A DNA stretch of 59,187 bases from contig JAUCBJ010006530.1 of the NCBI GenBank assembly GCA_032718475.1, positions 1 to 59,187 on the forward strand. The letters are read 5' to 3'. The notes beneath the pieces were generated by a model that saw only the letters and a program-made list of their open reading frames with translations, was not told the DNA's origin and searched no databases. Below, piece by piece: positions 5,354 to 49,147 of this stretch (position 1 is its first letter; each line of letters begins with the position of its first letter). The translations under genes were made by a program, and so were the position numbers. Source of the stretch: Nemertoderma westbladi (taxonomy: Eukaryota > Animalia > Xenacoelomorpha).

Positions 5354-6242
5354 AGTCACACTCCCACCTAATCCACTTCTATTGAACGGGCAGTCTTAGA
5401 CTGCCCGATCTGGACTGTCAGAAGTGTCAGATTTTAAACTCTGAATCTAAAGAGCATCTCCATCGTTGTACATACGGAATCAGAATTCAGATGGTCTGAA
5501 TCTGATATCCAACGTGCGTTTCGTCTGATATTAGTCTAATATTGATCGCATTGATCGTTCGTATATTAGATACATACCGTATTTCGCAGTATTATTTATT
5601 TTAATTTAATTCAGCCTCATATAGGGAATCTAAAATTTCAACAAGGAATTACGGCACTATTGGTCTAAACTTCTAACCCTACTTGAATTCTTCTGGCCAA
5701 AAAAATTAAAGAGTGATTTCAGGATTCCAAAAATAGTTTGAATTGGTTTGGGTTTGGAATAACAGTTGTTCTCTGACATTTCATATTTCGTTAAGAACCA
5801 TTTTCGTTGCCGCTTTTATGGCCGCTTTTTTTGTCACGTTTTCACTGCGTTTTTTGACGGTTTTTTGCCATGTCTTTTTCATTGCTTGACTTTAACCCTA
5901 TTACAGTCACAATCCCAATAAGCATTAACTTGGTCATTTTGGCCGCGTTGCCGCGAAGTTTTGCTTTTCACAATCTTGTCAATAAAAATATTAAAAATAT
6001 ATATACAGTATAATTCGCGGAAACTGCGGTGTTGCGTGGGGGCCACCAAGAATATTAACTTACTCAAAATATTTATATCTTAGTGGAATTTCGATCACTT
6101 TATTTCTCATTTAGATGTATATTGTATTGTTAGTTACTGTAATTCGTGATATTTGAAGTGTGGCGTAATTAAGTTTCGGTCAAGGAGTAGGATAAAATAT
6201 GAAAGTATATAATATGAAGGAGGAGGAGTGAGGGTGCAGACT

Positions 6243-8337: not shown

Positions 8338-8645
8338 TTTAAGGTCTGATTATTTACAGCAGCAGTAGTTCCAGTACTCCTCTATGGGAGACCATGCTGG
8401 GCTCTAACTGCTGAGGACACCAAATCTCTGGATGGCACATTCACAAGAATGCTACGCCGGGCTCATTGTGTCAAGTACAATGCACACATCTCCAACCAGA
8501 CACTACAGTATATAACATTGGAGGTGTCTCATTGGTTCCCACAAGCTTGACACTAGAACAAAATCGCCTCTGCTTTGCAGGACATTGCTTTCGCCGTGAG
8601 GACCAGCCAGTGCATAATCTTGTACTTTTGCAGCCTCATGGAATC
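8338..8645 (+). pseudogene. RTE-like LINE, RT C-terminal fragment
   Basis: AVVPVLLYG..CWALT...KSLDGTFTRMLRR...RLCFAGHCFR; same family as 14900-15512. Confidence 0.8.
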
Positions 8646-9950
8646 ACTGGCACGATTGGTCTTAATGCTCTTTGCAGCAGCCTTCACTTCTGCAAAGGTG
8701 ATATCACCAATGGGAATATCTGGGAGTACAGACTCAGATACTTTTACTTCTATAAAGTTATCAGGCAATACCCTGTCATTATTGAGGTGCTTTTCAAAGT
8801 GGGCCTTCCAACCATTGAGGCGATCGGCTGGTGATTCAGCCTTAACCTTGGTGGTTGGTTGGCTTTTTCGACCAACAAGCAACTTGATCGATCTCAATGC
8901 CTGGGATGATTGCCTGCTGTCGTCAGCATCATTGATGGCATCAACCTGTTGGTTTATTAGCTCCTGTAAATGCCTGTTCTGAGTACTGTACTCTGAACTC
9001 TGTAAAAGTGTACTGCCTGTTCAGGGACCTAGATGCAGCCTTAACTGCATTCTTGGCCGCTGTAGTCTGTTTGAGTCGGGATTCTTTCTGCGCCTTGTAG
9101 AGGTCATTTCGGCACTTCTGAATTTTGTTGTCAGTCCAGGGGGCCCGTTTCCTGTTTCGAGGGTATACAGGAACTGTTTCTGCAGCTGCTAACTTAACTG
9201 CCTCTGTGAAGGCAGTATAGCCCTCACAGTGATCTGCCGCCTCAGAGGCAAGAGCCTCATACCTGTTGCTCAGCTGTAGTGTGAAGCTGGATCTCACACT
9301 TGGCTATTGCAACAGAGAGGACCAGTCATGCCGCGGCAAGGCAGAATTCGTTGTTCTGCTAGCACGCAGACTAAGTCTTACCTTGGCCACAATAAGGCGG
9401 TGATCACTGGAGAAGGGTCGTAGTGTAAATGCATTACAGTCTTGTATAGAGCTCCTGTATTTCCTACGAAACAGGATATTGTGAGGGGATACTGGGACTT
9501 GTGACCACTGGGTCCACTATGAGTCCATAGCTTTCCAGTTCGCTTCTTGAACTGGGTTCCAGCCGAAAACAATCCATTTCCAGAGATAAAATCCTAAAGA
9601 TGGACGGAATTTCGGTTGACACTTTTGCTATAGACCCAGGTCGATGTAGGTGATTGATGCAGACTTGCATTAAAGTCTCCCGAGGAATGTTAAGAATGCA
9701 TGCTGATCCACTCCATCAGTAGCTGCTTGTAGATTCTGGTAGAAATTTTCCACCTCCTCTACAGGAGCAACACTAGTTGGAGAGTAGCACACAATCAGAA
9801 CCATCTTAGGAAACTTCATAGCCAGTCTTCCAGAACATGAGAAGTGGCAACGGATGATGCGGTTAGAGATTTGGTCTATTTTGTCCAATGCTGCATGTGC
9901 AGTTGGATTCATCAATAGACCAATTCCACCATTGCCACTATCATCTGCTG
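8640..9950 (-). pseudogene. RTE-like LINE, AP endonuclease to pre-RT fragment (frameshifted)
   Basis: ISNRII, LIVCYSPT, EEVENFYQNLQ, GDFNA-like, WTHSGPSGHKSQ, APWTD, WKAHFEKHLN and ITFAEVKAAAKSIK in successive ORFs. Confidence 0.85.
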
Positions 9951-10421
9951 ATATAGATATAGATTTATTATTTCTACAAATAGATTTATGAATATAGATT
10001 TATTTATTTATTATGAATTTATTTCGATAATATCTCTGGCAATTGTTTGTAAAATTTAAAACGGTTTTCAGAATTACATCCCAAAGACAAAAAATAAAGC
10101 CAGTAAAGATTGTTAAATATTGCCAAACTTTAGTGAGAAATGTATTCCATTCAAAAAATATAATATATTGTCTCATTTATTCAACGTAATCTGATGTCAA
10201 AAATTCAAGTTTTTCGCAATTTTAAAGAAAAACATTCAAAAATCGACAATCTCCGTAAAGCTGACACCGTGGAATTGCACAGAAATATAAAATTCGTCTC
10301 TAAAATTGGTAAACTAAAGTGGAAATAAATAAGGAATGCTCACACACAAATGTCAGGGAAAATGTCAGGGTATTATTGTAAAAATAAGACAAAACAGTGA
10401 AAAGTCAGGGGTTACAGTATA

Positions 10422-13228: not shown

Positions 13229-14080
13229 CTAAATCAAAATCTTCATTTCAACTCGAGAAGCCGGATTCCCTTCAGTAAAAGGAATCCAATAAGGTCCTTT
13301 CACCCACTCCCCACCATATTCTCCGTTCAAGTTACTGTTTGAGCAGCTCCTGTACCACCACGCACCAGTACTATATGTGGCGCAGTTGTTGCCAAACTCG
13401 TCATTATCGCGGTCCTTGGTAGAGAATGGGAGACCGTTTATATGCTCCAATGCGTCACCAGCAGTACCATGGTAACCGGATACATGTAGGGTGTAATTAG
13501 TTGCAGCTGATCCGATAGAGAAGTTCTTGTATTCCGCGTATTTGTGTTTGTTGTTGAACCACAAATCGACTCTCAACTTCACCCCGCCTTCACTCAGCTT
13601 GTGGATCTTCTCCAACCCCAACCAAATATTCGTCTCCGGGTCGCCAAATCCTTCAACATATTCATCCCAGTTACGATAGAAGTCAACTGATCCATCAACT
13701 CTTTGTTGAATCTTTACTCCATCATTATGCTTTAGGATAGGCGCTATCAGCTTATACAGTTTTAACCCTGTAAACTGGTCTTTCAACTCTGTAAACTGGT
13801 TTTTCAACTCTGTATTCTGTTCTTTCAACTCTGTATTCTGTTCTTTCAACTCTGTAAACTGGTCTTTCAAATCTCCAACCTTTTCTTTTAACTCTGTATT
13901 CTGTTCTTTCAAACCTCCAACCTTTTCTTTCAACTCTGTATTCTGTTCTTTCAACTCTGTATTCTGTTCTTTCAACTCTGTAAACTGGTCTTTCAACTCT
14001 GTATTCTGTTCTTTCAACTCTGTAAACTGTTCTTTTATCAGTTCTTCCAACGCAGCAACCTGTTCTTGTATTTGTTGACC
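13229..14080 (-). CDS. Fibrinogen-related protein (FReD; ficolin/tachylectin/angiopoietin-like), terminal exon: heptad coiled coil plus FBG domain
   Basis: IQQRVDGSVDFYRNWDEYVEGFG, WLGLEKIH, FSTKDRDND, NCA..STGAWWYRSCSNSNLNG; 13 heptads of E/DQ(N/F)TELK type; acceptor TTTTTTTAACAG ending at 14081 (phase 0); AATAAA at 13130-13125. Confidence 0.92.
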   Translation of the reverse strand, partial: GQQIQEQVAALEELIKEQFTELKEQNTELKDQFTELKEQNTELKEQNTELKEKVGGLKEQNTELKEKVGDLKDQFTELKEQNTELKEQNTELKNQFTELKDQFTGLKLYKLIAPILKHNDGVKIQQRVDGSVDFYRNWDEYVEGFGDPETNIWLGLEKIHKLSEGGVKLRVDLWFNNKHKYAEYKNFSIGSAATNYTLHVSGYHGTAGDALEHINGLPFSTKDRDNDEFGNNCATYSTGAWWYRSCSNSNLNGEYGGEWVKGPYWIPFTEGNPASRVEMKILI

Positions 14081-14899
14081 CTGTTAAAAAAAATTATTTT
14101 ATTTATATTTTATTTCATGTAAATCATAGGACATAAAAGCACACACTGTAAGTTACAGTATGTGTAATTGTCATCCTTCTCCAGGGGAAAATAACGCAAA
14201 TGATTACTCACAAAAAAAATAAAAGTGTAACCTTTCTATTGATTTTCGTTTATTGTTTTGGTTGGAATACCGTAACGTGCCACTTTAACCTGATCCTTTC
14301 TCTAAATTGGTAATTTAACATTAAACAATTTAACACAAAACATTAATTTCAAACGCTTAAGAACCTTTGAAGGGCCCTTTTAAACGTTTTTAACAATAAG
14401 TTATACACATATACAGTATATATATATAGGCCTACTGTAATACAATAAATTATTGTCAATATATTTTGCAGTTTCGCTATGTCTAATAGATATTTAAGAT
14501 ATTATCATATATAGACTCTCGTGTTGCGCGAAGGCCCACCACAACGTGTAATTAAAAGCCGAGGCCTTATATGTTCATTTCTCTCACACCGCTACTTCTA
14601 CGTAGTTCTGTCAGTTGTACCACTATACACGCATATACTGTATATTAGTGTATTACACACTAATGTTAGAACTGCAGATTAATTAAACAATATTATCAGC
14701 TGTCCAATCATGTACAGTGTCTACGGAGCCCCTAAATGGCAATTAAAAAAAATATCTAGAGCGCTCTCGATAATTCTTGATTTTATTGATTGGACTATTA
14801 CTACTAGGATCGGCATGCTGCATTACTGCTGCGTTATATATATATATTATAAATGCTGTGCCGGCTTGTCGACAAAATTGCACCGCCACAACTCCCTAC

Positions 14900-20765: not shown

Positions 20766-20968
20766 AAAGTATCGTGTGGTGAATGTTTTTGGTAGTAAGA
20801 TTGTTAGTAAGCCATTCATTCAAGGAGACACTTCATGCGTTAGTTAGCGCGGACTTTTGAGCGATTTCGCGCTTGTGTAAAAATAACTTTACATAATAAT
20901 ATATTAAATGTTGTACAGTGAGTGATGGTGAATTAAGAATGTTGTGTCCTCTACGGTAGGGACTACCC

Positions 20969-21506
20969 TGTTAGCTTATTCAATCCCGCTAACACCCCAT
21001 AAAGTTAAGCCGATAAGCAATATTGGGAGCCACGAGATTGGGTAATTAACCAACTCGTGCCATCCCAATAAGAATGGGAAGGAAACACACAACAAGGGTC
21101 AGGGGCCAAACCCCTAACCCGGAGAGAACAGGTGGAGTGAACGGGAACACTCCAAAGGGCGCCAACAAGGGTATCAACCAATCAGAGGGGGGAAAGGCAT
21201 CAATTAGGTAGAGTATCAAGGCCAACTGTGCAATATAGCCACTTGGCAGTAATCATATCAGTTCAGTTATCTCAGTGCAATATTAGTGCTAGTTTAGGTT
21301 AGATAGTTTAGCTAGGGAAGGACCGGGACTTTAGTTACCGTACCCCGCCTTCCGTGTACAACAACCTATATCTATATCTTTATACCGATCATTATATACA
21401 ACGAAGGACACAAACTCATTTACTCTTTTCCATTTACTCTTCACACACAGCGGGGACGCGTGAACTAACACCGGATAAACCGGGATCCCTCCTGGATCCC
21501 GTCACA
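20969..21506 (+). repeat. Element A 5' LTR
   Basis: TGTTAGC...CCCGTCACA; about 10 substitutions versus the 3' LTR by eye. Confidence 0.97.
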
Positions 21507-21602
21507 GTAACTAAATCGAGCTGCCGCCCTAGCTAAACTCAGTAATTAAGACCAACTGCCACCCTAGCTCAGCTAAACTCCACCAATCTAGAGGTAAAGA
21601 AG

Positions 21603-24600
21603 ATGAGTCGGTCAGGTGAGACGACACCGACGCGGACCCCGGACGAAGAACTAACGATCCGCGAGGCCGCAACCAGGCGGTACAGGCCCACAACGCCGGA
21701 CCCATCGGTAACGGGTCATCCGGCAGCTGAGGATGAGGGGGGCCGCCTGGAACCTGAGGTCGAGCCGAGAGGAGGAGAGAGCGAGACGGAGGGAGACGGA
21801 GACGAGTCGACACGAGACACGGACGTCGGTACCGATGTCGCGGGCCAGCCACAGGCCGAGGGCGACGGACGGCCCACCGAGACGGCGACGGTGGGGCCGA
21901 CGGTACGACGCCGGACCCGGAGAGACGACGGAGATGTCGATACCGATGTCGCCGGCCAGGCACAGGCCGAGGGCGACGGACGGCCCACCGGAACGGCGAC
22001 GGTGGGGCCGACGGTACGACGTCGAACCCGGAGAGACGGAGGAGAGGTCGGCGACGAGGACGTCGGGGTCTCCTGATCGACTTCGACGGGCCTACAACGC
22101 GACCCGGAGACTACTAGAGGAGGCCAGGAAGGGGAAAACGATAGACGAGGTAAAACTAAAGTCAGGACTAGGTAAGTCGGACAGACATTTATATTATCTA
22201 ATGCGCTTCGGGCAGAGAGAACTAGCCGAGGAGAGAGCAAAAGGGGTTGCCAGCGAACTGTTTGAACTATGGGAATGTGGGAGTATGGAACCTAGCGTAG
22301 CGTCAGTGTACATAGGGCCATACTTGGTCGATGCCCGGGGAGTAAAATTAGTGGGTTGGAGGGGACCTGAAGGGGGCGAATCCGAGGTTAACCCCGAGGA
22401 TTCGGCCTCGTCGGTCGGAGGAAGTTCCGGGAGGCGGGGGAAAGTTAGTAGGATCGGGAAGGCGGAGGGAATCCGTCGTAACCGATAAGTCTGCTACATC
22501 CTCCGTAAAAGAAAGACTGGTGAGAGAGATAGGTGCCGCGTGCCGTCTCGACCTGATAAAGCAAGGCCAGAGGGAAATGGATAAACAGCTAGAGGAGGGG
22601 AGAATGCGGCTAGAGAGGGAAGCGATATTGATTAGAGAAACCGGAGAGAGGGCTGAAAGGGCTTTGAGAGGCCTTAGGGAGTGTGATGAAATAGAGGAAA
22701 GGGAGTGTAGGGAGCGTGAGGCGAGAGAGGAAAAGGAACGCAAGGAGCGTGAGGCGAGACGGGAAAGTGAACGCAAGGAGCGTGAAGCGAGGCGAAGGGA
22801 GAGCGCTAGGAGAGTAGCAGAGTTGGCTGAGCGGGACGCGCGGGAGTGTGAGAGGAGAATGGTAGAAGCTGAGCGAGAGCATAAGGAATTAAAGAGACGC
22901 CAAAGTGAGCTAGCGGAACATAGGATTAGACGCACGCACGAGCTGCAACTGGTGCGGGCGGGGGCGTCTGAGAGCGAGACTGGCTCGAGTATTTTAGGGG
23001 AGCCAGGGGCCGTGGATACATTTATTAATACCCCACTTACAGGGACCGCACGACAGACCCAAAACTGGTGTGACCGTACGGGCGGGGGGGGGGGGGGGGG
23101 TAATAATGATAATGGTACAGTAGACGTGGTTAATATTAATAGTACCGTATGGGATAATTCTAATCAAACCTTTATTGCAGGAAATACTTTGCCTAGTGAT
23201 AGTAATTTAAATTTAAATCAGAACAATCCTAATATTAATGTAGAAAATAATTCTAATATTAATGTAGCTACACAAAATAATCCAAATAATCAAAATAATA
23301 ACCCAAATTCGAACCTACAAAATAATTTAAGTAACGCAATTACACAAAATAATCCAAATAATTTAAATAATGATCCGAGCCCGAATTTACAAAATAATTC
23401 AAATAGTGTAGTTGCGCAAAGTAATTCAAATGATTTTGTTTCGAACGAACAAATTGATTCCGTTTCCAATATGGGTGCTATTAACGTAAACACGTCGGGC
23501 GTGTATAGCCAGGCAGATGAGGGCCTGGTAGGCCAGATAGTTGGTAGGCAGGGAGCAGAGGGCCTGGTAGGCCACGTAGTTGGTAGGCAGGGAGTGGCTG
23601 GGTTGGGTAGACCCGGCGAGGGCCTGGTAGGCCACGTAGTTGGTAGACAGGGAGCAGAGGGCCTGGTAGGCCACGTAGTTGGTAGGCAGGGAGTGGCTGG
23701 GTTGAATAGACCCAGTGAGGGCCTGGTAGGCCACATAGTCGGTAGGCAGGGAGCAGAGGGCCTGGTAGGCCACGCAATAGCAGAGGGAGAGGCGGGGGTG
23801 AATGGACCCGACCGCGATAGGGTTGATGTGTCGACTAGAGAGGGATATAGTACCGTAGTGAGGGATAGCGAAGTTAGATGTGGCGAGTGGGGGGGGGGGG
23901 GGCTACAGGGGCCCCACAACAGCGAGTTAGCGGCGAAAGGGGGGGGGGGGGCAGAGAGTGTCCCACAGCCGTCAGCGGATAATGCGCGGGCCGAAACTAG
24001 GTAAACCGCAACACCCGGTGACGGAGAGCAATAGGGGGATTGCGAGTATCCCCAGCGGCGTGCGACCGAGCAGAGAGAGACAGGTTGACGTCGTGAGGAG
24101 GGCGGACGAAGCGTCGAGCCCGTTCAGAGGAGGGAAGAAGAATAGTGGGGTTTAACCGGGAGGTTGACGTGAGATCTCACGAGCGGGAATACTCCACTGA
24201 AAGGAGAAGAAGAGAAGACAGTAGTAGAGGTATCGCCGCGAACGATAGAAGAGCGAGGACGGATAGCAAGCCGTCGGTAGTCGAGATGAGAACGGAGAGT
24301 CAGTGGGGTCGGACTCCGGGAGATTGCCGTCGCCCCGGAGAGATGCGACCTGGCGGGGCGCACTACGCGCCGAGAGAGGGGTACGCGATGTACCGGTACG
24401 AAGATGAGGACAGTAGAGAGGGGGGTCGAAGAGAAACTTTCCGACGGAATACACCTACCGATCGAGACTACGGTAGCCGCGGGGAGGACTATTCGAGAAG
24501 AATAAACTTCGATCCCGAGCGATACATGCAGACTGTAGGACATACTGTAGGCCTTACTGCACATACCATAGGCCATACTGAGAGAGGCAATATAGGCGAT

Positions 24601-27600
24601 AGGATAGTGTGGACGACGGGATTAAACCCGGAAGTCGCGGAATACATACCGGCGAGTAGGCCAGAAGCTGATAGGCCTATACCGGTACCGGTACAGCAGT
24701 ATGACTACAGCATGCAGGGACATAACATATACCCTGGGGAGGGGGGAATTATTGCGGATAGGTGTATGGGCCCCAATATATTAACATCAACCCCAGTACC
24801 AAACATACCGGTGGGGGGGGGGGGGGGACAGGGTGACATTCCCCCATCACAATATCAACAATATACCCCGATAGGAGCAAGAACAACGAGACCCTTGGAT
24901 GAGAATAGGTCGTGTGATACAGAAATATGGAGGGGGCCGCTACCCCCGATGACATACCCAAGTCAGAGAAGGTCAAGAAATAGGACGGACGAACCGCACC
25001 AGACAGGAGAAACTATACAGCACCCATCGAATCCATTGGAAGCACAGGCGATGGGGATGGCCACGTTGATCGATGCGTTGAAAACGAGGATCGAGTTACC
25101 ACCCATGGAACCATTCAAATTCGATGGGAGCAGGCCGGAAGAATATCTACAGTTTCGGCGCATGTATAGTAACGAAATACTAACAAAGAACTTGACGCAG
25201 GCGGAGTGCCTTAAGTATCTGCAAGTATACACGGGAGGCCCAGCATACGATATTGTGAGGCAATATCAAGGAATAGAGGGCGGCTTCACGACAGCATGGC
25301 GGGCACTGGATAGGGAATACGGGTACCCGGCCAAGATCATCAGACAGACACTGAGAGGCATAACATCGGGTGGCCTGCAGGATAATCCCGTTAGCATTAA
25401 GACATTTGCTAACAAAGTTGAAAAGGCGCTAATCGTGCTGAAGACGCTAGACGCGCCATACGAGCTCAACGCGTCCAACAACATCACCACGATAGCGCAG
25501 GCACTACCGAACTGGCTGCGCAACAAGTGGAGGAAGATCGCCTTCTCCACTCGAGATAAGAAGGGTGCGGAACCGGGTTTAGAAGAAATGTCAAACTTCT
25601 TAAACTACGAGGCCGAACTAATAACTGACCCAGTCTATAGTGAAGATAGCCTGGGAAAGGGACCGAAGACAGACTACCATAGACCGAAACCAGAGCACAA
25701 TACATCAAACGCACTACCGAGACTCAGGCAATCATTGCCATATGCAGCAACGCAGGGGACTGCAAGTCCACAGCTAGCCGAGGATAAGACAACACCATGG
25801 AACGGACAGGGAAACAATAATAACACGAATAAACATAACCCCAGTACGTCCAGTAGGCTGAATCCATACAATAAGAATAGTAGGGACTTTGGTACAAACG
25901 CAACTGCGATACGCAATGCACTGTATAAAGAGGGCTACGACCCAAAGAGCAAATGCCAGCTACACGCAAATGCGCTTCATCAAACCATGAACTGCAGGTA
26001 CTGGCAGGCGCTACCTAGGCAAGAGCAGATAGATTATGCGTTCAGCAACAAAATCTGCTCGCGATGTGTAATGAGTGGACATAGAGCAAGGGAGTGCAAG
26101 GAGAAGCCAGTCAAGTTTGGTCAAAGGAGAGGCCAAACGATGGCGACGAGCACAGTAGGGGCGAAGAAGAGAGGAACGGTGCTACTTGGAGTAGTACCCG
26201 TACGAGTGATTGGGGAAGGCAATCGATCAGTAACAACACTAATGTTGGTTGAAAGTGGAGCTGCCTTCACACTAGTCGAGGAATGGGTGGCCGAAGAGAT
26301 AGGATTGAGAACGAGGCCAAGCAGAATGGCGGTAACAACCATCTCTAGCAAAGATGAGATCCTGGAGATGAGAACAGGACGGTGCGCAATTGCAGCAGTG
26401 GCACCGGGATGCGACTATGGGGCAACCATCGACCCCATCCAAGTGATAGAGTCAATTAATATCAATGCCAGGCGGCCAACTAACATCGAGGTCAAGCAGT
26501 AAAAATTCCTGGACGACATTGACTTCTCAATCCCAGACATGGACGTTAGGAAGGTGTCCATCATAGTAGGTATGGACTGCCCAACGGCCCACGAAAGAAT
26601 GCAAACGGTCTTCGGCGAAGACAAGCAGAGTGACCCGGTAGCCATATTAACACCATTCGGGTGGACGCTGAGTGGTCCAATCAAGAGCAAGATACCATTT
26701 AGGATGTCGGAGACATCAGGATGCATGTTCGCGGGAACAATACAGGAAATGGGTGACGAGGGAGCAGAGGAGCAGCTTAAAAGACTGCTCAGACAGGATT
26801 TCAAGGGACTGAAAGAAACCGGGGTCGGGACCTCGGTAGAAGACAAACAGGCTTTACAAAGCGTGGAGGAATCGATGACATGCGATGAGGGGCGGTATAC
26901 AATAGGAATGGTATGGAAACTACCGAAGATACCGCTGCCCGACAATAGAGGGATGGTACTCACGAGACTCCGCAAGCTGAAACAAACACTAAAACGGAGC
27001 CCCGAGAAGAATGAGTACATCCACAGAACGATTAAGAAGTACGTCGAGAAAGGATGGGCCGTGGAGTTACCGGTCGACGAGCCGAACACGGACAGGACAT
27101 ATTACCTGCCACTACACGTGGCTTTAGATCCAAAGAAAGGTAAACTACGGATGGTAGTCGACGCATCGGCAAAGACCGACAGAAAATGCTTAAACGACTA
27201 CCTGTTAGAAGGCCCAAACATATACAATACGGGCATAGAGGTGCTACTTAGATTTAGAAATGGGAAAGACGCCTTCACGTGTGACATAGAAGGCATGTTT
27301 AACCAAGTCCGTGTAACGAAAGAAGATAGCGACAGTCAACGCTTCTTATGGTATAACGGCGAGGAAGAACCGCCGATAATACCAGCATATAAGATGGTAG
27401 TACAAAACATGGGGGCCAAGTCGTCTTCATTTACGACGACTATGGCAGTGAGAGACACAGTAAAGGGGAAGGAAGATAGATACAGCAGTAGGGCCGTCGA
27501 TATGATTCAACGCGGCTTCTACGTAGATGACGGAATGGAGTCTGGAAATACGGTTAAGGAGATACTGGACACAGGGCGCGAGGTTCGCAACATCCTAAGA

Positions 27601-30138
27601 GGATCCGGCTTTAAACTGACCAAATACCAATCCAGTTCGGAAGAATTTATCAAGGCGATAGAAGACAAGAGACCAGAATCGACCATTGATAATCCCACAA
27701 CAGCCAAAGGGCAGGACATGGCGAACAAGAGAACAGAGTCTCAACAGAAGGCATTGGGAATCGTGTGGAATAGAGAGACAGACGAACTGAAGTATCAGCT
27801 GAGCCAAGAGGGCGCAGACACCCACACGAAGAGGGGCTATGTATCGTATATAGCAAGGATATACAATCCCCTAGGCCTAGCATCCCCATTATTAGTCACG
27901 GGAAAACAGATACTCAAGAGAGTATACAAATTGAAAGATGAGTGGGACGTAGAGGTACCAGAAGAAATCAAGAAACAGTGGAGTAAGTGGACAGGAGACT
28001 TGGAGAAGATGGGAACATACAACCTGCCTCGAGTGTATTTCCCGGATGGGAACATGATGAGTCTGGACCTACACATGTTCTCCGATGCGTCGTTGGAGGC
28101 GTACGGAGCGGCACTCTATTTAGTACAACGAGAGGGGGCTCATAAGCCCAGACTAGCCTTTAGCAAAGCAAAGTCAACGCCGCCAGATTCAGCATCAGTT
28201 CCCAAGTTAGAATTGACAGCTGCGAGACTAGGAGTTAGAGCCACAGCCTACCTAGTGGATACTATTACCAACATAGTGGAGACACACTACTGGACGGACT
28301 CCATGGTAGTGCTTGGTTTTCTACATAACGAAAGGACGAGATACCCGATATTCGTCGCAAATAGAGTGGACGAAATAAGGGCGACCACAGAACTGGAAAG
28401 GTGGTATTACTGCCCAACAGACGAGAAGCCAGCGGACTTGCTGTCGAGGGGCGTAGAACGCCACACTTTCTTGAAGAAGGAAGTATTGTGGCAGCATGGG
28501 CCACAATTTCTGAACGATAAGGAGGCCTGGCCGCCGATGAGAAAGGTGGATCCGGGCTCAGAAGTGGTATCAGAGGGAGAAGAGGGATATTCAGGGGGAG
28601 AAGAGATATACTCCCAGATGGTGAGGGATATTAGGGACGTGCAACCAAGACGAGAACTGTGCGATAACCCGACGGATAAACTCCTCAGCTACAGTTCTAG
28701 TTGGTATAAGACCAAGAAACTAGCGGCGTACTGGAGAGCCTTCGGGAATTTCCTCGCGGGAGTTGGCAAGGACAAGAAGATCAGGACAACCATAGATCTG
28801 GAAGGAGCGGCTAAGGCAATCATCCGCTATGAACAACGGAAGAACTATGGCGACGAGGTGGAACACGTCGGTAACCAACAGCACCTCCGACGGGACAGCG
28901 AGCTGATTACGCTGTCGCCACATCTCAATGACGACGTGATTCTAGTAATGAATTCTAGGGTGGGACACTACAACAGCATAGTCGTACCACCGAAACCCAT
29001 CATCATTCCCACAGGATCGCCAATAGTCCACCAGATTATCTGGGACTCCCACAAATCGATATTGCATGGGGGCACCAACCGAACCCTCACAGAGATAAGG
29101 AGGACCTATTGGGTCAAACAATTGAGGAAGAAGGTAAAAGCGGTAGTGGGGCAGTGCCAGACCTGCCGACGAGCGAAGAAGGAGCGAGCCGTACAGGAGA
29201 TGGCGCCACTACCGGCGAGTAGGGTAAGACAACACAACCCGCCATTTACGCATTGCGGTGTGGACATGTTCGGGCCGATAAAGATCAAAGTGATGCGACA
29301 CACGGAGAAACGCTACGGCATCATCTTCGAATGCAACAACACAAGGGAACTGGGGATAGAACTCGCCCAAGATGCAACTGCATCAGCATTCATTAATGCC
29401 TTAGAAAGGTTTAGAGACCGCAAAGGTGGGACGATTGCAGTGATATACAGCGACAACGGCACCAACTTTGTGGGCGCAGAGAGTGAGATGGCAGAGGCCT
29501 TGGACATCTTGGAGGGAGAAGAAGTCAGGGCGGCCATGAGACGACGACAAGTAAAGTGGGAGAGAAGGACGCCGTATGCACCACATACACTAGGATGCGT
29601 CGAGAGACTGGTAGGCAGTTCAAAGCGTCTAATGACGAAGCTGATGAACACCCACATGGTCACTGAAGACGTCTTACGGACAGTACTTGCGAAGTGCAAG
29701 GGGATCATTAATAGCAGACCGCTATATCCGGAGAATGATGACCCTGAGTCATTAGACGTGCTGACGCCTAGCCATTTCCTGATGGAAAGGCCAGCGACCA
29801 TCGATATGCGGGGTGTAGACCCAGATGACATACACTCCCGCCAAAGTTGGAAAGAGTATTGGAGGAGGTGGGTCGAGGAATACCTACCCACACTCCATAA
29901 AAGGAGTAAGTGGAGGAAGCCAAATAGGGAGTTAAGAGAAGGAGATCTCGTAATCGTTACGGATGATACTATCATCAACAACCAGTGGCGGTTGGCGAGA
30001 GTCGTAGGCACTTATTCCGACGAGGACGGAAGAGTCTGATCGGTAGAAGTGCGGATAGGTGGTAAGATAGGTGCGAAGGACAGAAAAACCTACAGGAGAG
30101 CTGTGGGAAAATGCTGTCTGCTAGAAGGAGCACCTTAG
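21603..30138 (+). pseudogene. Element A gag-pol polyprotein (few frameshifts and premature stops)
   Basis: Gag core PFKFDGSRPEEYLQF; knuckles CQLH..H..C and CSRCVMSGHRAREC; PR site VESGA; RT YYLPLH, CDIEGMF, FYVDD; RH FSDAS, PKLEL, WTDS, PAD; IN H..H..CQTC, GVDMFGP, SDNGTNF, ERLV. ORFs 24145 and 26539 share a frame across TAA 26500; reading through TGA 30037 reaches TAG 30138. Confidence 0.95.
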
Positions 30139-30289
30139 TGGAGTTAAAGAAGGGTTTAGTCATCCAAGTTTTGGACTGAGGGGGGTGGGATTGAGGGCGA
30201 GACGCCCTTCCCACACAAAAATAGAAAATAAAAATAAAAATAATGAGTAAGTACATAGTAGGTACGCAGTTAGTAGGCAGAGTTAGTTA

Positions 30290-30860
30290 GAGGGTACGTA
30301 GTACTGCTAGTTAGTTAGTTAGTTAGTTAGTTAGGAGGTACGTAGTACCGCTAGTCAGTTAGAGAGTTAGTTAGAGGGTACGTAGTACCGCTAGTTAGTT
30401 AGAGAGTTAGAGGGTACGTAGTACCGCTAGTCAGTTAGAGAGTTAGTTAGAGGGTACGTAGTACCGCTAGTCAGTTAGAGAGTTAGTTAGAGGGTACGTA
30501 GTACCGCTAGTCAGTTAGAGAGTTAGTTAGAGGGTACGTAGTACCGCTAGTTAGTTAGAGAGTTAGAGGGTACGTAGTACCGTTAGTTAGAAGAGAGTTA
30601 GAGGGTACGTAGTACCGTTAGCTAGAGAAGAGTTAGAGTTAGAGGGTACGTAGTACCGTTAGTTAGAGGATAGTTAGAGGGTACGTAGTACCGTTAGCAA
30701 GAGAAGAGTTAGAGTTAGAGGGTACGTAGTACCGTTAGTTAGTTAGAGAGTTAGAGGGTACGTAGTACCGTTAGTTAGAGGAGAGTTAGAGGGTACGTAG
30801 TACCGTTAGTTAGTTAGTTAGAATTAGAGTTAGAGGGTACGTAGTACCGTTAGTTAGAAG
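30290..30860 (+). repeat. Minisatellite in element A between pol and the accessory ORF: 15 copies of AGGGTACGTAGTACCG(C/T)TAG with variable TTAG/AGAG spacers
   Basis: Counted directly; period ~36-45 bp. Confidence 0.95.
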
Positions 30861-31341
30861 AGGGAGAGTAAGAGGTAAAAGGGGTATGTAAGATATAGAT
30901 ATTAGTTAGCAGTTAGTAGGGAGAGGGGGGCATATGAGTACAGCTGGGTAAATCGTGTGGCCACACGACGCATACTGCTGTACTGCATAGGCCCACAGAG
31001 TAGGCCAGAATGTGGATTAGAGAATAGAATAATCCATAGGTAATAGTAAGTAGTAGGACAGTAGAATTAAAATAGATAAATAAATAGAATAGGGCTGAAA
31101 GTTACAAATAATGGCAACACAAGGGAAGTTATTCTAGAACATAATAAAAGTAACGGACAGAAATTGTAAATTATGCTCATTTACTAGCTTCAAAATTAAT
31201 TAGTTATAATTTAGGTTAAAAGGCGCAGTTAAGTAGAAAATAGGCCATTATCGGACCGTACAGAACATCCTAGATACATCACTCATCTGTATTGCGCCTT
31301 GGTAAGGCACCACCTTGCAGGTGAGCAAGTGAGTGTTCGGA

Positions 31342-33888
31342 ATGGCAAGCAAGTTGATCAGGTAGAGAAAGGCGGAGTCAGGAGGAAAGGAGATACTGGT
31401 GGATTTCACCGAGAGGCATCCGGAAGAGAAGACGAGAGGGTACTACCAGAGGTTGGAAAGGGGTCACGCGGCACGAGCGCTGCAGGATCACTTCCAGGAG
31501 ATGCACGAACAGCGGCTGGTCGGGACCTACGGGACGCCGTCGCTGGAAAACGCGATCTTCCAACACTTCCACTACGTGGTAAAAGGGGACGAGGCGAAGT
31601 TCGGGATTCCGAAGTACCCGAGGGAATCACCGAGGAAGGACTGGAAGAGATTCATAGAGTCCGTCAACAGAGGAGGATATATGATCCTAGATGACGAGGG
31701 AACCGTGGAAGACGAGGCGGGTTCGAGACGAGGATCAGCGGGGTCGGCCAGGACCATACTCCTACATTTGGCCGCGCCAAATGGGGACATCTTCTTATTC
31801 GATCTAGGAACGTATGGGAAGAAGGACGGGCCGAAATTAAACCGGTTACCGAAAGCGGTACAAGTCTTGGTAAGAGAGAAGTCGACGACGAAAGTGGGAT
31901 TGGTGATTCGCGAGGATGCAGAGAGAATCATCGGTCCGGACGCCACCAACCTCCTGGACATGCAGAAGGTCTTTATGGCTATGACGGCACCGGATGGGTT
32001 GGGGGTAGTCGAAAACACAGGCCAATGCGGGGCGGTGGCGATGGGCCAACTCTTGGGGCTCATGTGCCACAAACCGATGGACTGGGGAAAGTTCAGGGAA
32101 GAATACGGAGCGGAATTAGCGAACTCGCTAAAGTGGGGAGCAAGACCGGGAAAGCAAGAGGTATATCAATTCCGCAGAGGAGCGATAAAGGTATATCAGA
32201 AGCGATATATCCTACATGAAGATTGGATGATGATAAGTTTGCTTAACTTATTTATGACCGTGGTTATCGAGAGGGAACCAGGGGCATTTCTGTTATCGGG
32301 ATCACCCTTAAGCTACAGGAGAGCCTTTAAGACGGCCTTTGACGGTCTGGTAGACCACCCGGGGCTGAAGGGTGAGTCGGTGTACTACAACAGCCGGCAT
32401 CTGGTAGACGGGGAGACAGATACGCCGTATCAGAGATGGGAGCAGCTAGAAACGGATAGACGAGAAGCAAAGTGACTGGAAGAAGTCGCCAGACGGGAGA
32501 GGATAGAAGCAGAGGAGAGGGAAGAGGAGGCCAGGACGCAGAGTTACGGTTTCGAGGAACAGGCAGGCTTAGACAAACTTCATTGGACTTCATCAGGGAG
32601 TTCAGGGGAGTCTCTAGGACGAGAATTGGGATGAACGGTGGGATCGCCGAAACAGTCGACGTCGGGGTTGCAAGCGATGCCCATACCAGCGGGCGCCGAG
32701 GGCGACCAACCGCCAAGGAAGTTAAGGGAGCTGGAGGGATGGAGAGCTACGGGCGAGAGCCAAGGCGGGAAAGGACATAGTGGATCCATCGGGATACCGG
32801 GGTTGGAGCCACTGCCAGAGATGGAGGAGGACGACGACAAGTTCGGAGAGATGCCGCCCATCGAGAGGATAGGCCACTCGGACACGGACTGGGTTGGCGG
32901 GAGGGTGGTGATGGCCAGTGGGGCGAGGGCCTTCTGGAACAGATCCGGCAAGCGGACCTGGGTGCACGAGGAGCCGGCGATGGATTTCGCGGGGAGCACT
33001 ATCAGGTTGGGCGAGCAACCGGGGACGGCACCATGGATAGTATTCGGGGAGACGATGCCCGAGAGGGGCGGGGAGATCGACGTAGATAGAGACACTAACG
33101 TGGAGAAATTCGCCTACCAGCGACTCCACAGACCTCGGAGATCGCTTGGGACGAAAGACGAGGTGGGACGGGAGACATTGGTACTCGGCTGCGACTACTG
33201 TGGGAGACAGACCCACCAGGAAAGGAGCTGCTTGTACTGGTTCCAGAAGGGAACCTTTTGTCTCTACTGCCGAGAGCCAAGCCACAGGATGGGGGCGTGT
33301 CCACGGTTGCATAACCGATGTCCAAAGTGCCACTTTCGGGGACACTACGGACGCCAGTGCAACTGGATGGACGACGAGGAGAAGTTCGCAAGATTCGAGG
33401 AGTGGGCCGATGTCGGGGCCATGACGCGCCAGCGCATGAAGGCCCAGGAGTTCAAGTGGGGTTTCTTCCTTATCAATCAGGAGACTCACATGGAAATCAT
33501 AAAGCGGAGGCTACCGTTTACCTATCAAGAGGTAGCAACGGCGGCGTCGTACGCCGGAGTGATGAACACACAAAGATATTTGGACAGGTGGACGCCACAG
33601 AACCGAAGGGAGTTTATGGATTTCTTGGCGGAGCACGTACCACAAGCAATGAAGATGATCCTATGGGACGCCACCAGAGGGAGACAACCGGGCCACTCTG
33701 AGGGGCCACCGGCGAAGCAATATCGGGCACTAATAACACCAGCTCCCAAGGAGCCAACAACTGGAATCAGCAGGGAGGTGGTGGCAAAGGTCCGAAAGCA
33801 GAAAGCGGATCCCAGAGGAGCGGTGGTAACCAAGAAACGACCCAGGGAAGAGGACGTCAGGGGGAACTATCCCCAGAGGAACAGATAG
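31342..33888 (+). pseudogene. Element A accessory ORF: DEDDy-type (RNase D/WRN/EXD-like) 3'-5' exonuclease + charged linker + three CCHC zinc knuckles
   Basis: One frame from ATG 31342 with in-frame stops at 31363, 32473 and 32632. Motifs ILDDEG, LLHLAAPNGDIFLFDL, LP..V..LV....TKVG..IREDA, LLDMQ, WGARP, Q..YILHED; knuckles CDYCGRQTHQERSC, CLYCREPSHRMGAC, CPKCHFRGHYGRQC. Confidence 0.8.
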
Positions 33889-34546
33889 GTTCCCAGAATC
33901 GAGGGAGAGAGACTGGGATTTGGACGTGGTACGCCTGGAAGGCGCCGCGTGAGACGTACAAACTATTAAGTACAAATCTAATTAATGCAAGTAATCATAT
34001 AAGTGCAATTCGTATGTACATACGTAGTAATTAGTGATCTACAAATATACGTTCGGAGTAAGTACTATAGTGATACAACCTTTCTCAATTAGCTACTGGG
34101 ACTGGGGGGTAAACTGACTATGACACTATGGACGAGACACCAGACAATTTCACACTTCTTGAGTGCGACGGCACAAGAGGGGGGGGGGGGGAGATTCGTC
34201 AGAAGGGATGAGGTAGACAAAGTGGGGTTGAGGGACGTGCGGAGAGAGTGCGGATGCAATTCTAGTGTGGGGGGGGAGAATAAGAGGCTGAGTGAGGGGC
34301 GAGGAGGTCCAAGTGTATGAGAGAGTTAGGGTGAGAGTGAAGAAGAGATAGGGCGAAAGTGTTGGGGAAACAAAGGTCGTGTGAGAGGTGAGCGCGATCG
34401 GCCCGACATGGGACGCCAGGCACACAGGGTAGCGTTATCATACCCATAGGGAGCGGCCTGGAAAGCCGGCTCCGAGAGAAAAGAATTCCACCCCACACCC
34501 GATACTAGATCGGGATCCAGCGGGATTGTAGCGCACTTTTTGGTTG

Positions 34547-34584
34547 ATGCTATCTTCTTACCGGGAAGATAGCATGGGGGGGAG
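34547..34584 (+). promoter_or_regulatory. Element A polypurine tract (34576-34584) preceded by an 11-bp stem hairpin
   Basis: ATGCTATCTTC-TTACCGG-GAAGATAGCAT followed by GGGGGGGAG abutting the 3' LTR. Confidence 0.8.
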
Positions 34585-35122
34585 TGTTAGCTTATTCAAT
34601 CCCGCTAACACCCCATAAAGTTAAGCCGATAAGCAATATTGGGAGCCACGAGATTGGGTAATTAACCAACTCGTGCCATCCCAATAAGAATGGGAAGGAA
34701 ACACACAACAAGGGTCAGGGGCCAAACCCCTAACCCGGAGAGAACAGGTGGAGTGAATGGGAACATTCCAAAGGGCGCCAACAAGGGTATCAACCAATCA
34801 GAGGGGGGAAAGGCATCGATTAGGTAGAGTATCAAGGCCAACCGTGCAATATAGCCACTTGGCAGTAATCATATCAGTTCAGTTATCTCAGTGCAATATT
34901 ATTGCTAGTTTAGGTTAGATAGTTTAGCTAGGGAAGGACCGGGACTTTAGTTACCGTATCCCGCCTTCCGTGTACAACAACCTATATCTATATCTTTATA
35001 CCGATCATTATATACAACGAAGGACACAAACTCATTTACTCTTTTCCATTTACTCTTCACACATGGCGGGGAAGCATGAACTAACACCGGATAAACCGGG
35101 ATCCCTCCTGGATCCCGTCACA
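34585..35122 (+). repeat. Element A 3' LTR
   Basis: 538-bp direct repeat of 20969-21506. Confidence 0.97.
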
Positions 35123-35127
35123 TACCC

Positions 35128-35792: not shown

Positions 35793-37290
35793 GATCTCCG
35801 GGTGTTCAACTATAGGAATCTTGTAAGTTGTCTCCTTCCGGGTCGGTATACTAATAGGAAAGCTAGTTGGTCTCGCAACCGGTACTATCGCTCCAGCAGA
35901 ATGGGGTTGAGGTTCTCGCGTCATCTCGACATGAGGTATCTGTAGTCTCTGCGACAAACCCTGAGCAAAGGTGATACTATCGAAGAGCTCGGGTGTCATC
36001 TCCTTAGGTTCGGTTTCATCGTGGGATATCCAATAGAATGGTAGGCTCGCGAGCCTTCCGCCGAACTCCTAGATCTCGCCTTTCTCGTACGCCTTGTACG
36101 CCCTGTAGAGGCTCAAAGCTTCCCGTTTCTCTTGCGTCGACTTATTAGACTCGTCCACTACCATGCTGTAGACGTCTGGTTTGACTAATTTGGGTTCGTA
36201 AATAACGATCTCACCCGCGTTCAGTCCACTCATCTTAAACGAATGGTACGGATTCGTCAAAGGGTATCCGCCTTCTTGGTAACGTAGACTTTGGTGGTAT
36301 GAGCATCGCGCTAATATCAGCTCGGGTAAGGGTTCGTTTACCATCAAATATTGCAGCGTATGATATAATCGGCGTATCTCTGTGTCTGGATCCTTGCAAA
36401 TGTCACTAGCATCGCATAACGCATCGTAAGGATATAACGCATTGAACTCCGCGCGTAATTCCTCCGTTCTTTTGTTATAAGCATCCAATCGCTGTTTAGT
36501 CACATTCGGGTCCGCCTTGGATTTAGAGAGCTTGGCTGTACTTCTAGCCATACTCTCCACTCCAAACACACTAAAGTTTTTAGCTCCATAACGATTAAAC
36601 AGCGCCTGGTGCTCTTGTTCCTGCGTAAACCCCTGACGTAACTCCTTATACATCTTCTCCGCCATCATATACGTGTATATATGGTTACATATCGTTACGT
36701 TTCTACTAGATAAAGCACAAAATAGAGCTTAGATGTGAGGTGACTTAGAGTTTGTCGGCTTTTGGCTCAACTTTGCTCTAAAACCCCAACCCATTTGCCT
36801 AATGACTTCGGGTTCGCGTGATTTCGCACTGGCTCCTAATCCAAAAAATTGTGCCAATAAAAAACGAATTCCGGGTAAACTAGCCGCGAGTCTAAAATAC
36901 TCACCTTTTAATTTCCCAAACTACATTCCCAAAGAAATAATGCAGTCGAGAATTAATTCGGTCTAAATAATAGTAGACACGACTACGTAGAACAAGGCCG
37001 ATTTTCTTTTCTAAAAAAAATTTTTTTTTTCAGTAAGCTCGCAAGCCTTCCATCCGCTCTTTTCCTCCCCAATTTTACATTTTATCTAGCTGTATTCTAG
37101 AATTTGCATTCACTGGAGAATCATTTTTCTTAAATTTAAATCCAACTAAATGGATTTGTCTAATAATTTTTGAAAATTGTCTCACTTGAGGGTTCCAAGT
37201 GGAATTCCATTCCTACTGTACACACAATCCTGCTCCTATGTGATACATAAGGGTACTACCCTCCATGTTCACATATAAAACAATGGAATT
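35793..37290 (-). pseudogene. Element B accessory ORF (decayed), function uncertain, weak DEDDy-exonuclease-like motifs
   Basis: 36920-35793 is one frame with single stops at 36731 and 36071, joining the 199-aa and 121-aa ORFs. An upstream piece at ~37290-37075 lies in another frame. Confidence 0.5.
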
Positions 37291-46136: not shown

Positions 46137-47149
46137 TCATGTCTTATTATATACGTCAAGTACGGGTAATAAAATGTCAAAGTATCGGAATGTTGAAATG
46201 TCAAACTTACCTTGGTATATATATATATAGCATATATATACCCTAACCGGTACAAATAAATCAACAAAGTCAGAATGTCGAAATGTCAAAATGTCCAAAT
46301 GTCAAACTTACCTTGATATATATATATATCATATATATACCCTAACCGATACAAATAAAACTAACAGAGTATATAATAAAATATGTAATAATCTAGCCTA
46401 CCAGCTAAATTTGTACGAATAAGTGAGATAATGGTATATGTTACCAAAATGTAGATCAACAAGTACAAATGATAGGCAAAACAGCAACGTCTAACAAGAA
46501 AAATAAGTACCAACAACACTACTAATTAGACAGTGAAACCCAGAAATTTTGAGTACTACTGTGCTTTCTAAGTTTGAACGACACGAGTCGTAAAACTACG
46601 CTCCTTTGATCTTCCAGTCGTGCAAATTCCCAAATACAAACTGGACGTGGGTCGTTCCGTTTTTCGGCGGCGCGGACAAATATTTTGTCTCCCAACCTTT
46701 GCGAAAAGCGGTCTAATCCTCGAAGCAGTACAGAAATGAGTCCTTGAGTCCTAAAAAGTCGAAGGTGAGAGTTTTACTTCTACTCTACGAAAAATCTTCC
46801 TAGGTACCGATACAACTTGGTCTTTAAACCCTATGTACCTTTTCAAATACCAAAAAGTAACACCGCACACACACGGTGTAAAACAAAATGCTACAAACTA
46901 ACTATTAGCTAGTCAAATATTAAATACGAAACTACTAGCTACCCTAAAGCCTACTGAAGCAGGGGACGATCTACAAATTACTAATTTTACTAACCTTAAA
47001 TTTTTTAAATATCTCCTACTTACAATAGCTAACAATATTTACATATATCTTACTTTAGGTAAGATATATCTACCATTTGCAAATCACAATTTGCAAACTA
47101 AACAATAAATATACCTCACTGTTGTGAGGTAAACAAACATATATCTCAC

Positions 47150-48783
47150 TGTTGTGTCCTCTACGGTAGGGACTACCTTACAGCCTACAAATCTACTAAT
47201 ACAAAGCTATAGAATATCTCTAAGCGTAAAGTCCAGTAGTATACCGCTTACCAGATCCTAGTAACGATGTATCTTACTGTAAGACTCTAGTAATGAAACG
47301 GGCTAGTACAGTATCTGACAACAAATCCCAGTCCAGGATATCTAAACAAACAGATACAATACACAAATTACTACTGGCGAGGAGCAGAGCCTGGTGTCAA
47401 ATCTATGTACGTGAGCGGGTCTAATGCCTACAAACTAGACAAAAGGATACCTGTCCTCTAACCGGTATGGCAGATGTACAGTTACAGTAACAGACCAAAC
47501 TCACGGGAAAACAATCCCCGCGCAGCGAATCCTAACTATCGCTGAAAGTCCGAAATACTGTAACTTGCCGCAGTGTGATTTATATGGTTTATATACGAGC
47601 TAGGTGGGTTACAGACCTAGCGTAACAATACTGATCTCCCTGTCTGAATCCTTCTAAAAAGGGTCGTGCCCAATATAACAATGCTGCTGCTCTAGGCAAA
47701 CAACAGTTAATAACGAAAATGAAACACTCCCTTGCCGTAACTAAATATCTGATCCTAATTTTACAAATACGAATGGTAAGTTATAGATATACTCTGCCTA
47801 AAGTGATCTAAAGTGCGCTATCTAGTAGAACTCTAAGGGTAAATATGTTTTAGGGCGTGTGTGTGTGTGTGTTACAATAAAACAATTTTGGTGTATATCA
47901 TTTACTAGGTTTTAGTAATTCTCTGACCAAAACAATACCGTGCGCTAGCTACTAAAATATGCTAGTCGCGCTTTGTAGAACTTTATACTTACAAATGACG
48001 TCAAAGCTCTCTCCTTCCTATCCACAACTCAACTGGGCAACCACGGTGTTAGTAACTACACCCGTGATCGGCACAAATACCAGATTCTGGTTGTAAGATA
48101 AGAAATAGGGATTAATTGCTACCGTACGTTAGCTGATCTGGTATACAAATTTGATTCTAGAACTTTGTTGCTGCGGTAGTTAACAGCAAATACCTATCAG
48201 TACGTGGCAAGGCGCGGTAGGATATTAATAAAACCTCCCTAGGCCAAGCGGTGTGCCGGTAGCAGAAATGCTCCTTGCCTGATCAAATAACTAACTTCAG
48301 GCAGGGGGGGGGGGGGGGTACTAATGTATGTTCTACAAAGCAAACCGGTACCAAACAGTCAGTACTGCAAATCACTAAATTATGGAATGTATGCTGTCTG
48401 TACCTAATATGTACTCGTGTACCGACGGACGGCAATAGCTCGCACCTATGAGGTATACAGGTAACCTAGGGATTCGTAATACTGACAAGGGGGTTCTGCC
48501 TAGAACATAGTTATTTGATCCTAAAATTTGCGGCGTCCCAGGACGGCGTCACGCTTACCCTGATCTATAGGTCTTACGTCGGGCAAGGGCGTCAAACAAA
48601 GTCTTACCTTCCTCATAAAGCGGGCGCTGCATGGTAAGTGGAGTATTTCAAAGGGCGAAGGGGGTGCGCGGTCTAATCTAATGTGGGCGCTAGCGTGTTG
48701 TGGACATCTTTTCCCTGCGTTGCTGATGGCCTAACGGTCTAGGCGGCCATCTTCCTGATGCTTGGCTGTCCCAAAGTTGGACA
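47150..48783 (-). repeat. Element B 5' LTR (outer end approximate)
   Basis: Begins TGTTGTGTCCTCTACGGTAGGGACTACC as at 20940; homologous to the left copy up to 48456. Confidence 0.8.
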
Positions 48784-48986
48784 TTCAGAAAAGTGCATGT
48801 TCAGAACTTTTATAGTATATTTACAGTTTACAAAACTAATTCTTCATACATTCTTCTTTATATAGAGAGGGCTGGGTTGTAGGCTGAGACAAATAGGGGG
48901 TAAATAGAGGGAGGCCAGGGGAGTGGTTTTACAAACATTGTTGTAAAGCTAAACATATGACAAATCTGCTTTGAGAACAAACTTAC

Positions 48987-49094
48987 ATTGTCTCTTTCAA
49001 CTAATTTGTTGGAGTCCTCGTTGTTGTCTCCATTGCACTCCACAGCTAAAAGAGCTGCCAGAGCTGAGAGTAGGAGAGTTTCCTTTATTGACAT
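48987..49094 (-). CDS. Signal-peptide exon (probable exon 1 of the FReD gene)
   Basis: MSIKETLLLSALAALLAVECNGDNNEDSNKLVERDN (36 codons) followed by consensus donor GTAAGT (phase 0), matching the phase-0 acceptor at 14081. Confidence 0.75.
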
Positions 49095-49147
49095 TGTAGA
49101 GTTGTGATAAATAATTTTTTTACACAAACGAAAATACAATCTTCTGT

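Follow-up and report, generated by a model that had tools for sequence, protein, structure and literature searches.

Minus-strand DNA synthesis primed by an element's own RNA has been proven for Tf1, whose RNA is cut by RNase H between bases 11 and 12 (accessible portion of PMC7175516), and has been proposed for Tj1 (accessible portions of PMC4600332 and PMC7175516). For the plant elements Tcn1 (gypsy) and TAR (copia), self-priming was predicted from LTR-site complementarity alone (PMC6317226, in the part available to us). The accessible text of PMC5445492, PMC5443660 and PMC3601003 mentions self-priming for Tf1, chromoviruses or a hypothetical ancestor alone, and that of PMC9094657, PMC3286476 and PMC8220671 has nothing further to add. 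For the BEL/Pao elements, the ICTV account of Belpaoviridae names tRNA-Arg or tRNA-Gly as the primer, bound to a site of 18 nt, gives a genome of 4.2-10 kb, and calls replication poorly understood (PMC8742986). The terms PBS and tRNA are absent from the main text of the BEL/Pao surveys PMC3118150 and PMC554778. Our search of titles and abstract starts found no report of self-priming or junction priming in BEL/Pao, and the idea of spliced-leader priming in Oikopleura had no match in the literature searched. A further system of relevance is that of the bdelloid LTR elements Juno and Vesta, for whose DEDDy ORFs RNA 3'-end processing has been suggested, not shown; the accessible portion of that paper draws no link to priming, and the terms PBS, tRNA and self-priming are absent from it (PMC5408684).

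The window studied here (the whole stretch of DNA that was analysed, 59,187 nt) contains a BEL/Pao retrotransposon of 14.2 kb, element A, at 20969-35122 on the plus strand. Its features are as follows.

20964-20968, plus strand: left target-site duplication TACCC (second copy at 35123-35127)
20969-21506, plus strand: 5' LTR, 538 bp, TG...CA, with the terminus ...TCACA
21232-21268, plus strand: candidate core promoter, with a TATA-like AATATAG at 21232 and overlapping initiator-like TCAGTT motifs at 21258 and 21263
21305-21317, plus strand: 13-nt anchor block, whose partner is 21527-21539
21330-21338, plus strand: predicted primer 3' segment, ending TTAC^C, its final base opposite the first post-LTR base
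21460-21468, plus strand: U5 segment, predicted to fold onto the primer block in competition with the primer-binding site
21481-21501, plus strand: 8-bp G+C-rich hairpin, resembling a U5 inverted repeat, just inside the LTR terminus
21507-21517, plus strand: putative non-tRNA primer-binding site, flush against the LTR
21527-21539, plus strand: leader block, complement of 21305-21317
21542-21583, plus strand: imperfect second copy of the leader unit, with weaker LTR pairing
21604-30039, plus strand: gag-pol, in several frames with stops (for example 26500-26502 and 30037-30039)
30251-30875, plus strand: tandem repeat array with a 36-40-nt unit, between pol and the extra ORFs
34576-34584, plus strand: polypurine tract, directly before the 3' LTR
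34585-35122, plus strand: 3' LTR, holding the second copies of the blocks at 34921-34933 and 34946-34954

Element A belongs to BEL/Pao (Belpaoviridae), as its Pol order of protease, RT, RNase H and integrase and its BEL/Pao-specific domains demonstrate. Pfam matches within gag-pol comprise DUF1759, an aspartic protease, RT (with YVDD), Peptidase_A17 (E 9.6e-39), integrase (Integrase_H2C2 was also matched) and DUF5641, and PF05380 occurs in all 51 homologues found at E<=1e-50. The arrangement of PR-RT-RH-IN with DUF1759, Peptidase_A17 and DUF5641 is that of the described Belpaoviridae (Semotivirus; Tas, BEL, Pao, Sinbad, Suzu), as are the TG...CA LTRs, the polypurine tract and the 5-bp target-site duplication, and the LTRs of A lie within the family's size range of 0.2-1.2 kb. 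Unlike the family description (PMC8742986), A lacks an 18-nt site able to pair with the 3' end of a tRNA, is 14.2 kb long and carries two extra ORFs that are not env. As the family is defined by phylogeny and the tRNA site is a descriptive trait, we still file A in Belpaoviridae. The two LTRs are 98.1% identical, and none of their 10 differences falls inside the pairing blocks, a count too low to inform. A donor-like site at window position 21594 precedes the first ATG and an acceptor-like site at about 31214 precedes the extra ORFs; their scores are modest (2.1 and 4.3), and the pair could give rise to a spliced subgenomic RNA.

A preliminary description of this DNA had reported that the leader following the 5' LTR lacks TGG and pairs with the LTR in exact priming register, and these observations are confirmed. 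The leader of A starts GTAACTAAA after 21506, and the lack of TGG excludes a mature tRNA 3' end as the primer. Positions 21507-21515 are the exact reverse complement of LTR 21330-21338, which places 21338 opposite the first base past the LTR, and 21527-21539 correspond to LTR 21305-21317 in the same inverted manner; the two blocks lie 11 nt apart in the leader and 12 nt apart in the LTR. The 9-bp helix gains 2 bp past a single bulge, and the leader unit is imperfectly duplicated (21507-21541 and 21542-21583). The rarity of these matches was assessed with 20,000 dinucleotide shuffles of the A LTR: the anchored 9-mer arose in 90 of them, a 13-mer somewhere in the leader's first 40 nt in 4, and the two jointly in 1. 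Matches to the 13-mer number three against 0.04 expected, lying in both LTRs and, as an inverted copy, in the leader, and nowhere else. Under a looser matching rule, matches of at least 9 nt are seen in 57 of 472 combinations of an LTR with an unrelated leader, so the 9-mer by itself is modest evidence.

This arrangement resembles that of the Tf1/sushi group (Tf1, Tf2 and Tj1, of Ty3/gypsy), which, in the sources as available to us, also has no tRNA site and a site that complements its own LTR RNA. Both have a U5 hairpin near the LTR end, and the priming duplex is 11 bp in Tf1 and predicted to be 9-11 bp in A. Tf1/sushi elements are Ty3/gypsy chromoviruses by phylogeny, whereas the domains and homologues of A are BEL/Pao; the Tf1 primer is given in the accessible text as the first 11 nt of the RNA, whereas the block in A probably lies about 70 nt inside it; and A has a second helix, of 13 bp. 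In most of its relatives the primer would form only through a predicted splice. For Tcn1 and TAR the match had to span 10 nt or more and to begin 0-5 nt from the LTR, whereas A offers 9 contiguous or 11 bulged pairs; these elements belong to another superfamily and kingdom, and no intron-built primer is described for them in the portion of PMC6317226 available.

The pairing was then considered in other BEL/Pao elements. The search for close relatives of A was unsuccessful: the most similar proteins are 26-33% identical, and two scans of viral contigs were empty. Twelve homologues belonging to the group that lay closest to A in a quick tree (the trees used were quick and FastTree trees) were therefore aligned, and this alignment as the query retrieved 95 loci, 79 from metagenomes and 16 in genome bins, of which 56 and 12, respectively, were inspected for LTR pairs. 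The loci in bins (L080-L095) are BEL/Pao contigs within bacterial genome bins, most likely mis-binned animal DNA. Near-duplicates (L001, L012, L035, L037, L041 and L049) were dropped, as were loci with an unusable LTR end (including L011, L021 and L085), and 21 loci entered a single pairing test with a threshold of at least 10 nt matched between the site and the element's own LTR. None of the 21 has TGG in the first 8 nt of its leader, and ARAGORN found no tRNA gene in the 30 of the 95 loci that were scanned.

The threshold was reached by 19 of the 21 relatives, compared with 19 of 472 cross-family swaps. Where the boundary is fixed by both LTR copies (12 loci), 10 reach at least 10 nt. The LTR end was chosen by scan in L034, L036, L066 and L068 (0-4 of 100 shuffles) and by eye in L015, L018, L022, L027 and L064, so that hits were favoured in these 9 of the 21 loci. 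The two loci below the threshold, both among the 12, are L056, with 9 nt to its 5' LTR and 11 nt to its 3' LTR (predicted intron 77 nt), and L084, with 8 nt. The matched letters are specific to each family, which means that site and primer covary among the relatives, and the matches begin 0-5 nt from the LTR border. Of the 19 primers predicted, 13 have -AC at the 3' end, 4 have -AT and 2 have -ACT, and A also ends in -AC. Seventeen of the 19 matches exist solely across a predicted LTR intron, mostly of the form GTAAG...T-rich...AG; a canonical LTR intron with a site-complementary junction is thus predicted in 17 of 21 relatives and not in A.

L002, L009, L015, L018, L022, L027, L030, L034, L036: first nine junction-type LTRs, 10-15 nt match across a predicted canonical intron
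L039, L048, L050, L066, L068, L082, L083, L088: the other eight junction-type LTRs, 10-15 nt match across a predicted canonical intron

For the predicted intron to be inherited although the match needs its removal, at least one R copy would have to stay unspliced in junction-type elements. The remaining two matches, in the sister loci L043 and L064, are contiguous (10 and 12 nt) and end TTAC^C as in A; L043 (LTR 5871-6070) and L064 (3' LTR) have short LTRs without GT[AG]AG donors and, being nested among junction-type elements, have possibly lost an intron. Identity between A and these relatives is 31-37%, and in the tree A forms a long branch outside their clade, for which there is a long-branch warning. 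The covariation evidence therefore concerns the predicted sites of the relatives and not A's own helices, the 13-bp helix in particular. The preliminary description had made its reading depend on conservation of the pairing in relatives; with different letters, it does recur in these distant BEL/Pao loci, albeit via a predicted splice in 17 of them.

To place the pairing in the context of the whole leader RNA of A, we considered its predicted folds. The unspliced duplex with both helices is predicted at -32.2 kcal/mol, and the LTR segment pairs with the first leader copy at -35.1 and with the second at -28.3 kcal/mol (predicted). The 13-bp helix is present in every predicted fold that contains its blocks, with pair probabilities mostly of about 1.0 (0.75-0.94 for the terminal pair). 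The 9-mer behaves differently: in the predicted cis fold it pairs with U5 21460-21468 and not with the primer site, and the site-paired fold is 3.4 kcal/mol less stable than the fold with the U5 competitor. The probability of pairing between the 9-mer and the site is about 0.01 in the cis fold, except in RNA starting at 21330, and is predicted to be about 0.45 once the RNA is cut at 21338. As a sequence copy of A's site, the U5 segment is not significant (179 of 500 shuffles). A conserved U5 'decoy' copy of the site was also considered as a general feature and rejected, as it reaches significance in 3 of 14 elements, A not being among them. In L009, L039 and L056, 8-9 nt of the primer site recur in U5, 45-76 nt inward of the LTR terminus (2-7 of 500 shuffles), and these copies possibly represent competing pairing.

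Our preferred explanation, to which we assign a probability of roughly 0.66, is that A self-primes its minus-strand DNA with an intron-free primer drawn from its own LTR, whose 3' end would lie at 21338. That LTR-derived RNA is the primer had been suggested in the preliminary description, and it is favoured by the lack of TGG, the exact register and the similar pairing of 19 of 21 distant relatives. Transcription would begin near 21260-21265, on the basis of the AATATAG and TCAGTT sequences, which we take to be promoter motifs, and a start there, 40-70 nt upstream of the pairing blocks, would place them in R, about 45-80 nt into the RNA. The 13-bp helix may tether R beside the primer site, with the 9-11-bp helix acting as the priming duplex and 21338 lying opposite the first post-LTR base. 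The competing U5 pairing would have to be displaced, possibly by Gag, and the 3'-OH would most likely arise from an endonucleolytic cut after 21338, comparable to the one that RNase H makes in Tf1. A would then represent an intron-free version of a system in which most sampled relatives assemble the primer by splicing out an LTR intron. Points against self-priming in A include its predicted cis fold, which favours U5 pairing over the site, its position outside the clade of the relatives, the two relatives below the threshold, the chosen LTR ends of 9 loci, the probable location of the block away from the RNA 5' end, unlike that of Tf1, and the ICTV description of the family as tRNA-primed (PMC8742986). 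Element B, described below, likewise has neither TGG nor a match above 7 nt, though it is decayed. On balance, A is probably a self-primer of the Tf1 type in its working that stands outside the Tf1 group, being BEL/Pao, with a probably internal primer and a second helix.

If this is true, self-priming reaches a third LTR superfamily, and does so via an internal rather than a 5'-terminal primer. Host splicing would be needed in most of the sampled relatives, and the onset of reverse transcription would thereby be coupled to the processing of RNA. The reading predicts an exact junction or RNA end for each element, and would account for tRNA-based annotation tools overlooking these primer sites. 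The evidence for self-priming in BEL/Pao is computational throughout.

Other ways of accounting for the pairing differ in where the primer comes from, or in whether there is one. One of them keeps self-priming and alters the source of the 3' end, invoking one of the two extra ORFs of A.

31366-32475, plus strand: extra ORF, candidate DEDDy-type (WRN/EXD2-like) 3'-5' exonuclease, with acidic motifs at aa 109-111, 184 and 281-286
32635-33888, plus strand: extra ORF encoding three zinc knuckles of the CCHC type (aa 186, 209 and 229), with a weak Pfam match to zf-CCHC_5 (E 2.8), for which no homologue was found

Here a co-encoded exonuclease would shorten an RNA, either the 3' R copy or a short transcript terminated in the LTR, until the duplex is reached. 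We consider this unlikely; it is a sub-case of the self-priming reading, and its probability is not to be added to that given above. The 3' LTR does carry both blocks, and the ExoI/II/III-like acidic motifs of the first ORF stand in the order expected of WRN/EXD2-like enzymes. Against a WRN/EXD2-like profile (26 bacterial sequences, family confirmed via PDB matches) the ORF scores 6.6 bits, above all 500 of 500 shuffles. DEDDy ORFs are also known from bdelloid LTR elements, and in the accessible part of PMC5408684 ORF3 of Juno and Vesta is, as in A, a post-pol ORF resembling DEDDy exonucleases, although these elements are of another lineage and the ORF of A is assigned much more weakly. HHalign gave a low probability of 2.5-11.6% against the exonuclease profile, the RNase D and PolA profiles were negative, and no homologue was found in Pfam, PDB sequences, NCBIfam, PHROGs or large protein databases. 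A search of 101 Bacteroidota genomes returned short weak matches (best E 0.02), three of which were translated and did not resemble exonucleases, and a single-sequence structure model had a pLDDT of 31.5, an unusable fold. Identification of the ORF as a divergent DEDDy 3'-5' exonuclease is therefore weakly supported: the preliminary description had called it a co-encoded 3'-5' exonuclease, for which motif order and profile score speak, and the HHalign result and the lack of database homologues do not.

The further proposal made there, that exonuclease and priming form one system, is not supported by comparison with the relatives. In all 20 signature-bearing relatives measured, the distance from the end of the integrase match to the 3' LTR is 112-446 nt, leaving no space for the ORF, and tblastn of the ORF against the 95 relative loci gave no match (0 of 95). 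It follows that the pairing signature does not require this gene, and that trimming based on the ORF, possible for A, cannot be general. In addition, a modelled trans primer left the cis fold undisplaced, and the LTR of A has neither AATAAA nor ATTAAA to place the R end. No description of an exonuclease-trimmed route to a primer was found for any LTR element in the literature searched. The widest version of the argument, that a broad BEL/Pao set is self-primed by mostly spliceosome-built primers while A is intron-free, has a second helix and trims its R-RNA with its own exonuclease, seems to us just as doubtful as the trimming itself; with the exonuclease part removed, we lean slightly towards it.

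It is decidedly unlikely that a host RNA, be it an internal or 5'-half tRNA fragment, a spliced leader or another small RNA, is the primer and that pairing with the LTR plays a secondary part. The anticodon loop of Leu(UAG) could presumably pair with five bases of the site, but a short tRNA-Leu motif of this kind had no match in the viral contigs. Priming by half-tRNAs is documented in copia lineages (PMC6317226, portion available). A host primer would nevertheless leave unexplained both the 1-in-20,000 match of A to its own LTR and the family-specific covariation of the relatives. As noted, the mature tRNA 3' end is excluded by the lack of TGG; ARAGORN found no tRNA gene in the whole window, and Rfam had no family near threshold in 20960-21700, where one miRNA match fell below it.

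Ranking after a host primer, and improbable, is a purely structural pairing with no priming role, serving packaging, dimerisation or a translation switch, or left over from an inverted duplication that was local. Such a role is in keeping with the position of the strong 13-bp helix, 20 nt off the priming position, with the mostly unpaired primer site of the predicted fold and with the local duplication of the leader. It does not suit the short block, which stops exactly at the LTR border, nor the relatives, whose matches start within 5 nt of that border and have the -AC end in common, and it would leave the element primerless.

The last alternative retains self-priming and gives A the spliced primer of its relatives. 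The 9-mer of A straddles TTTAG/TTAC, resembling the acceptors of L048 and L088, and introns ending at 21334 were therefore tested, using splice scoring matrices built from 17 relatives with leave-one-out ranges. The acceptor at 21334 scores -5.7, compared with 0.7-16.7 in the relatives, and the best donor 3.1, compared with 3.0-13.0; the candidate introns contain 27-30% T, compared with 36-58%. The LTR of A has no GT[AG]AG donor, and a host acceptor elsewhere in the window is T-rich. The best junction yields 8-9 perfect pairs, nothing out of the ordinary in comparison with shuffles (22-31 of 300). Given this unremarkable and weaker junction, the low splice scores, the low T content and the lack of GT[AG]AG, we read A as the contiguous type. 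Production of the primer by splicing, with an intron that ends at 21334, before TTAC, and begins at 21208 (127 nt) or 21298 (37 nt), is thus very improbable, since the 21208 junction, with its 8 perfect pairs and bulged 'spacer' extension, reaches -26.9 kcal/mol (3' LTR sequence) and is weaker than the unspliced duplex, the splice-site scores fall far under those of the relatives, a 37-nt intron is very short, and the 13-mer would end up intronic.

Element A is itself inserted in an older retrotransposon.

20940-48459, minus strand: element B, a decayed BEL/Pao element, with A inserted into its 3' LTR

The leader of B (window 47090-47149, minus strand) has no clear self-pairing. It starts GTGAG, and the LTR end together with GTGAG is repeated about 30 nt later; 9 nt of this second GTGAG copy complement the first bases of the B LTR, and no primer was identified. 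The right LTR of B holds about 612 bp (window 47557-48167) absent from the left LTR, and no matching target-site duplication was found at the flanks of B. An extra ORF of 219 aa lies in the interval between integrase and LTR (36069-36728, minus strand) and has no Pfam match.

Elsewhere in the window, a host exon at 13229-14083 (minus strand) encodes a fibrinogen C domain (E 8e-43) joined to a coiled-coil repeat of 7 residues. An exon resembling a signal peptide (about 48858-49199, minus strand) could belong to the same host gene, in which case both elements would be intronic. A BEL/Pao gag-like remnant with DUF1759 lies at 50321-50725 (minus strand), and frames at 8553-9999 (minus strand) resemble, by eye, the remnants of a non-LTR element.
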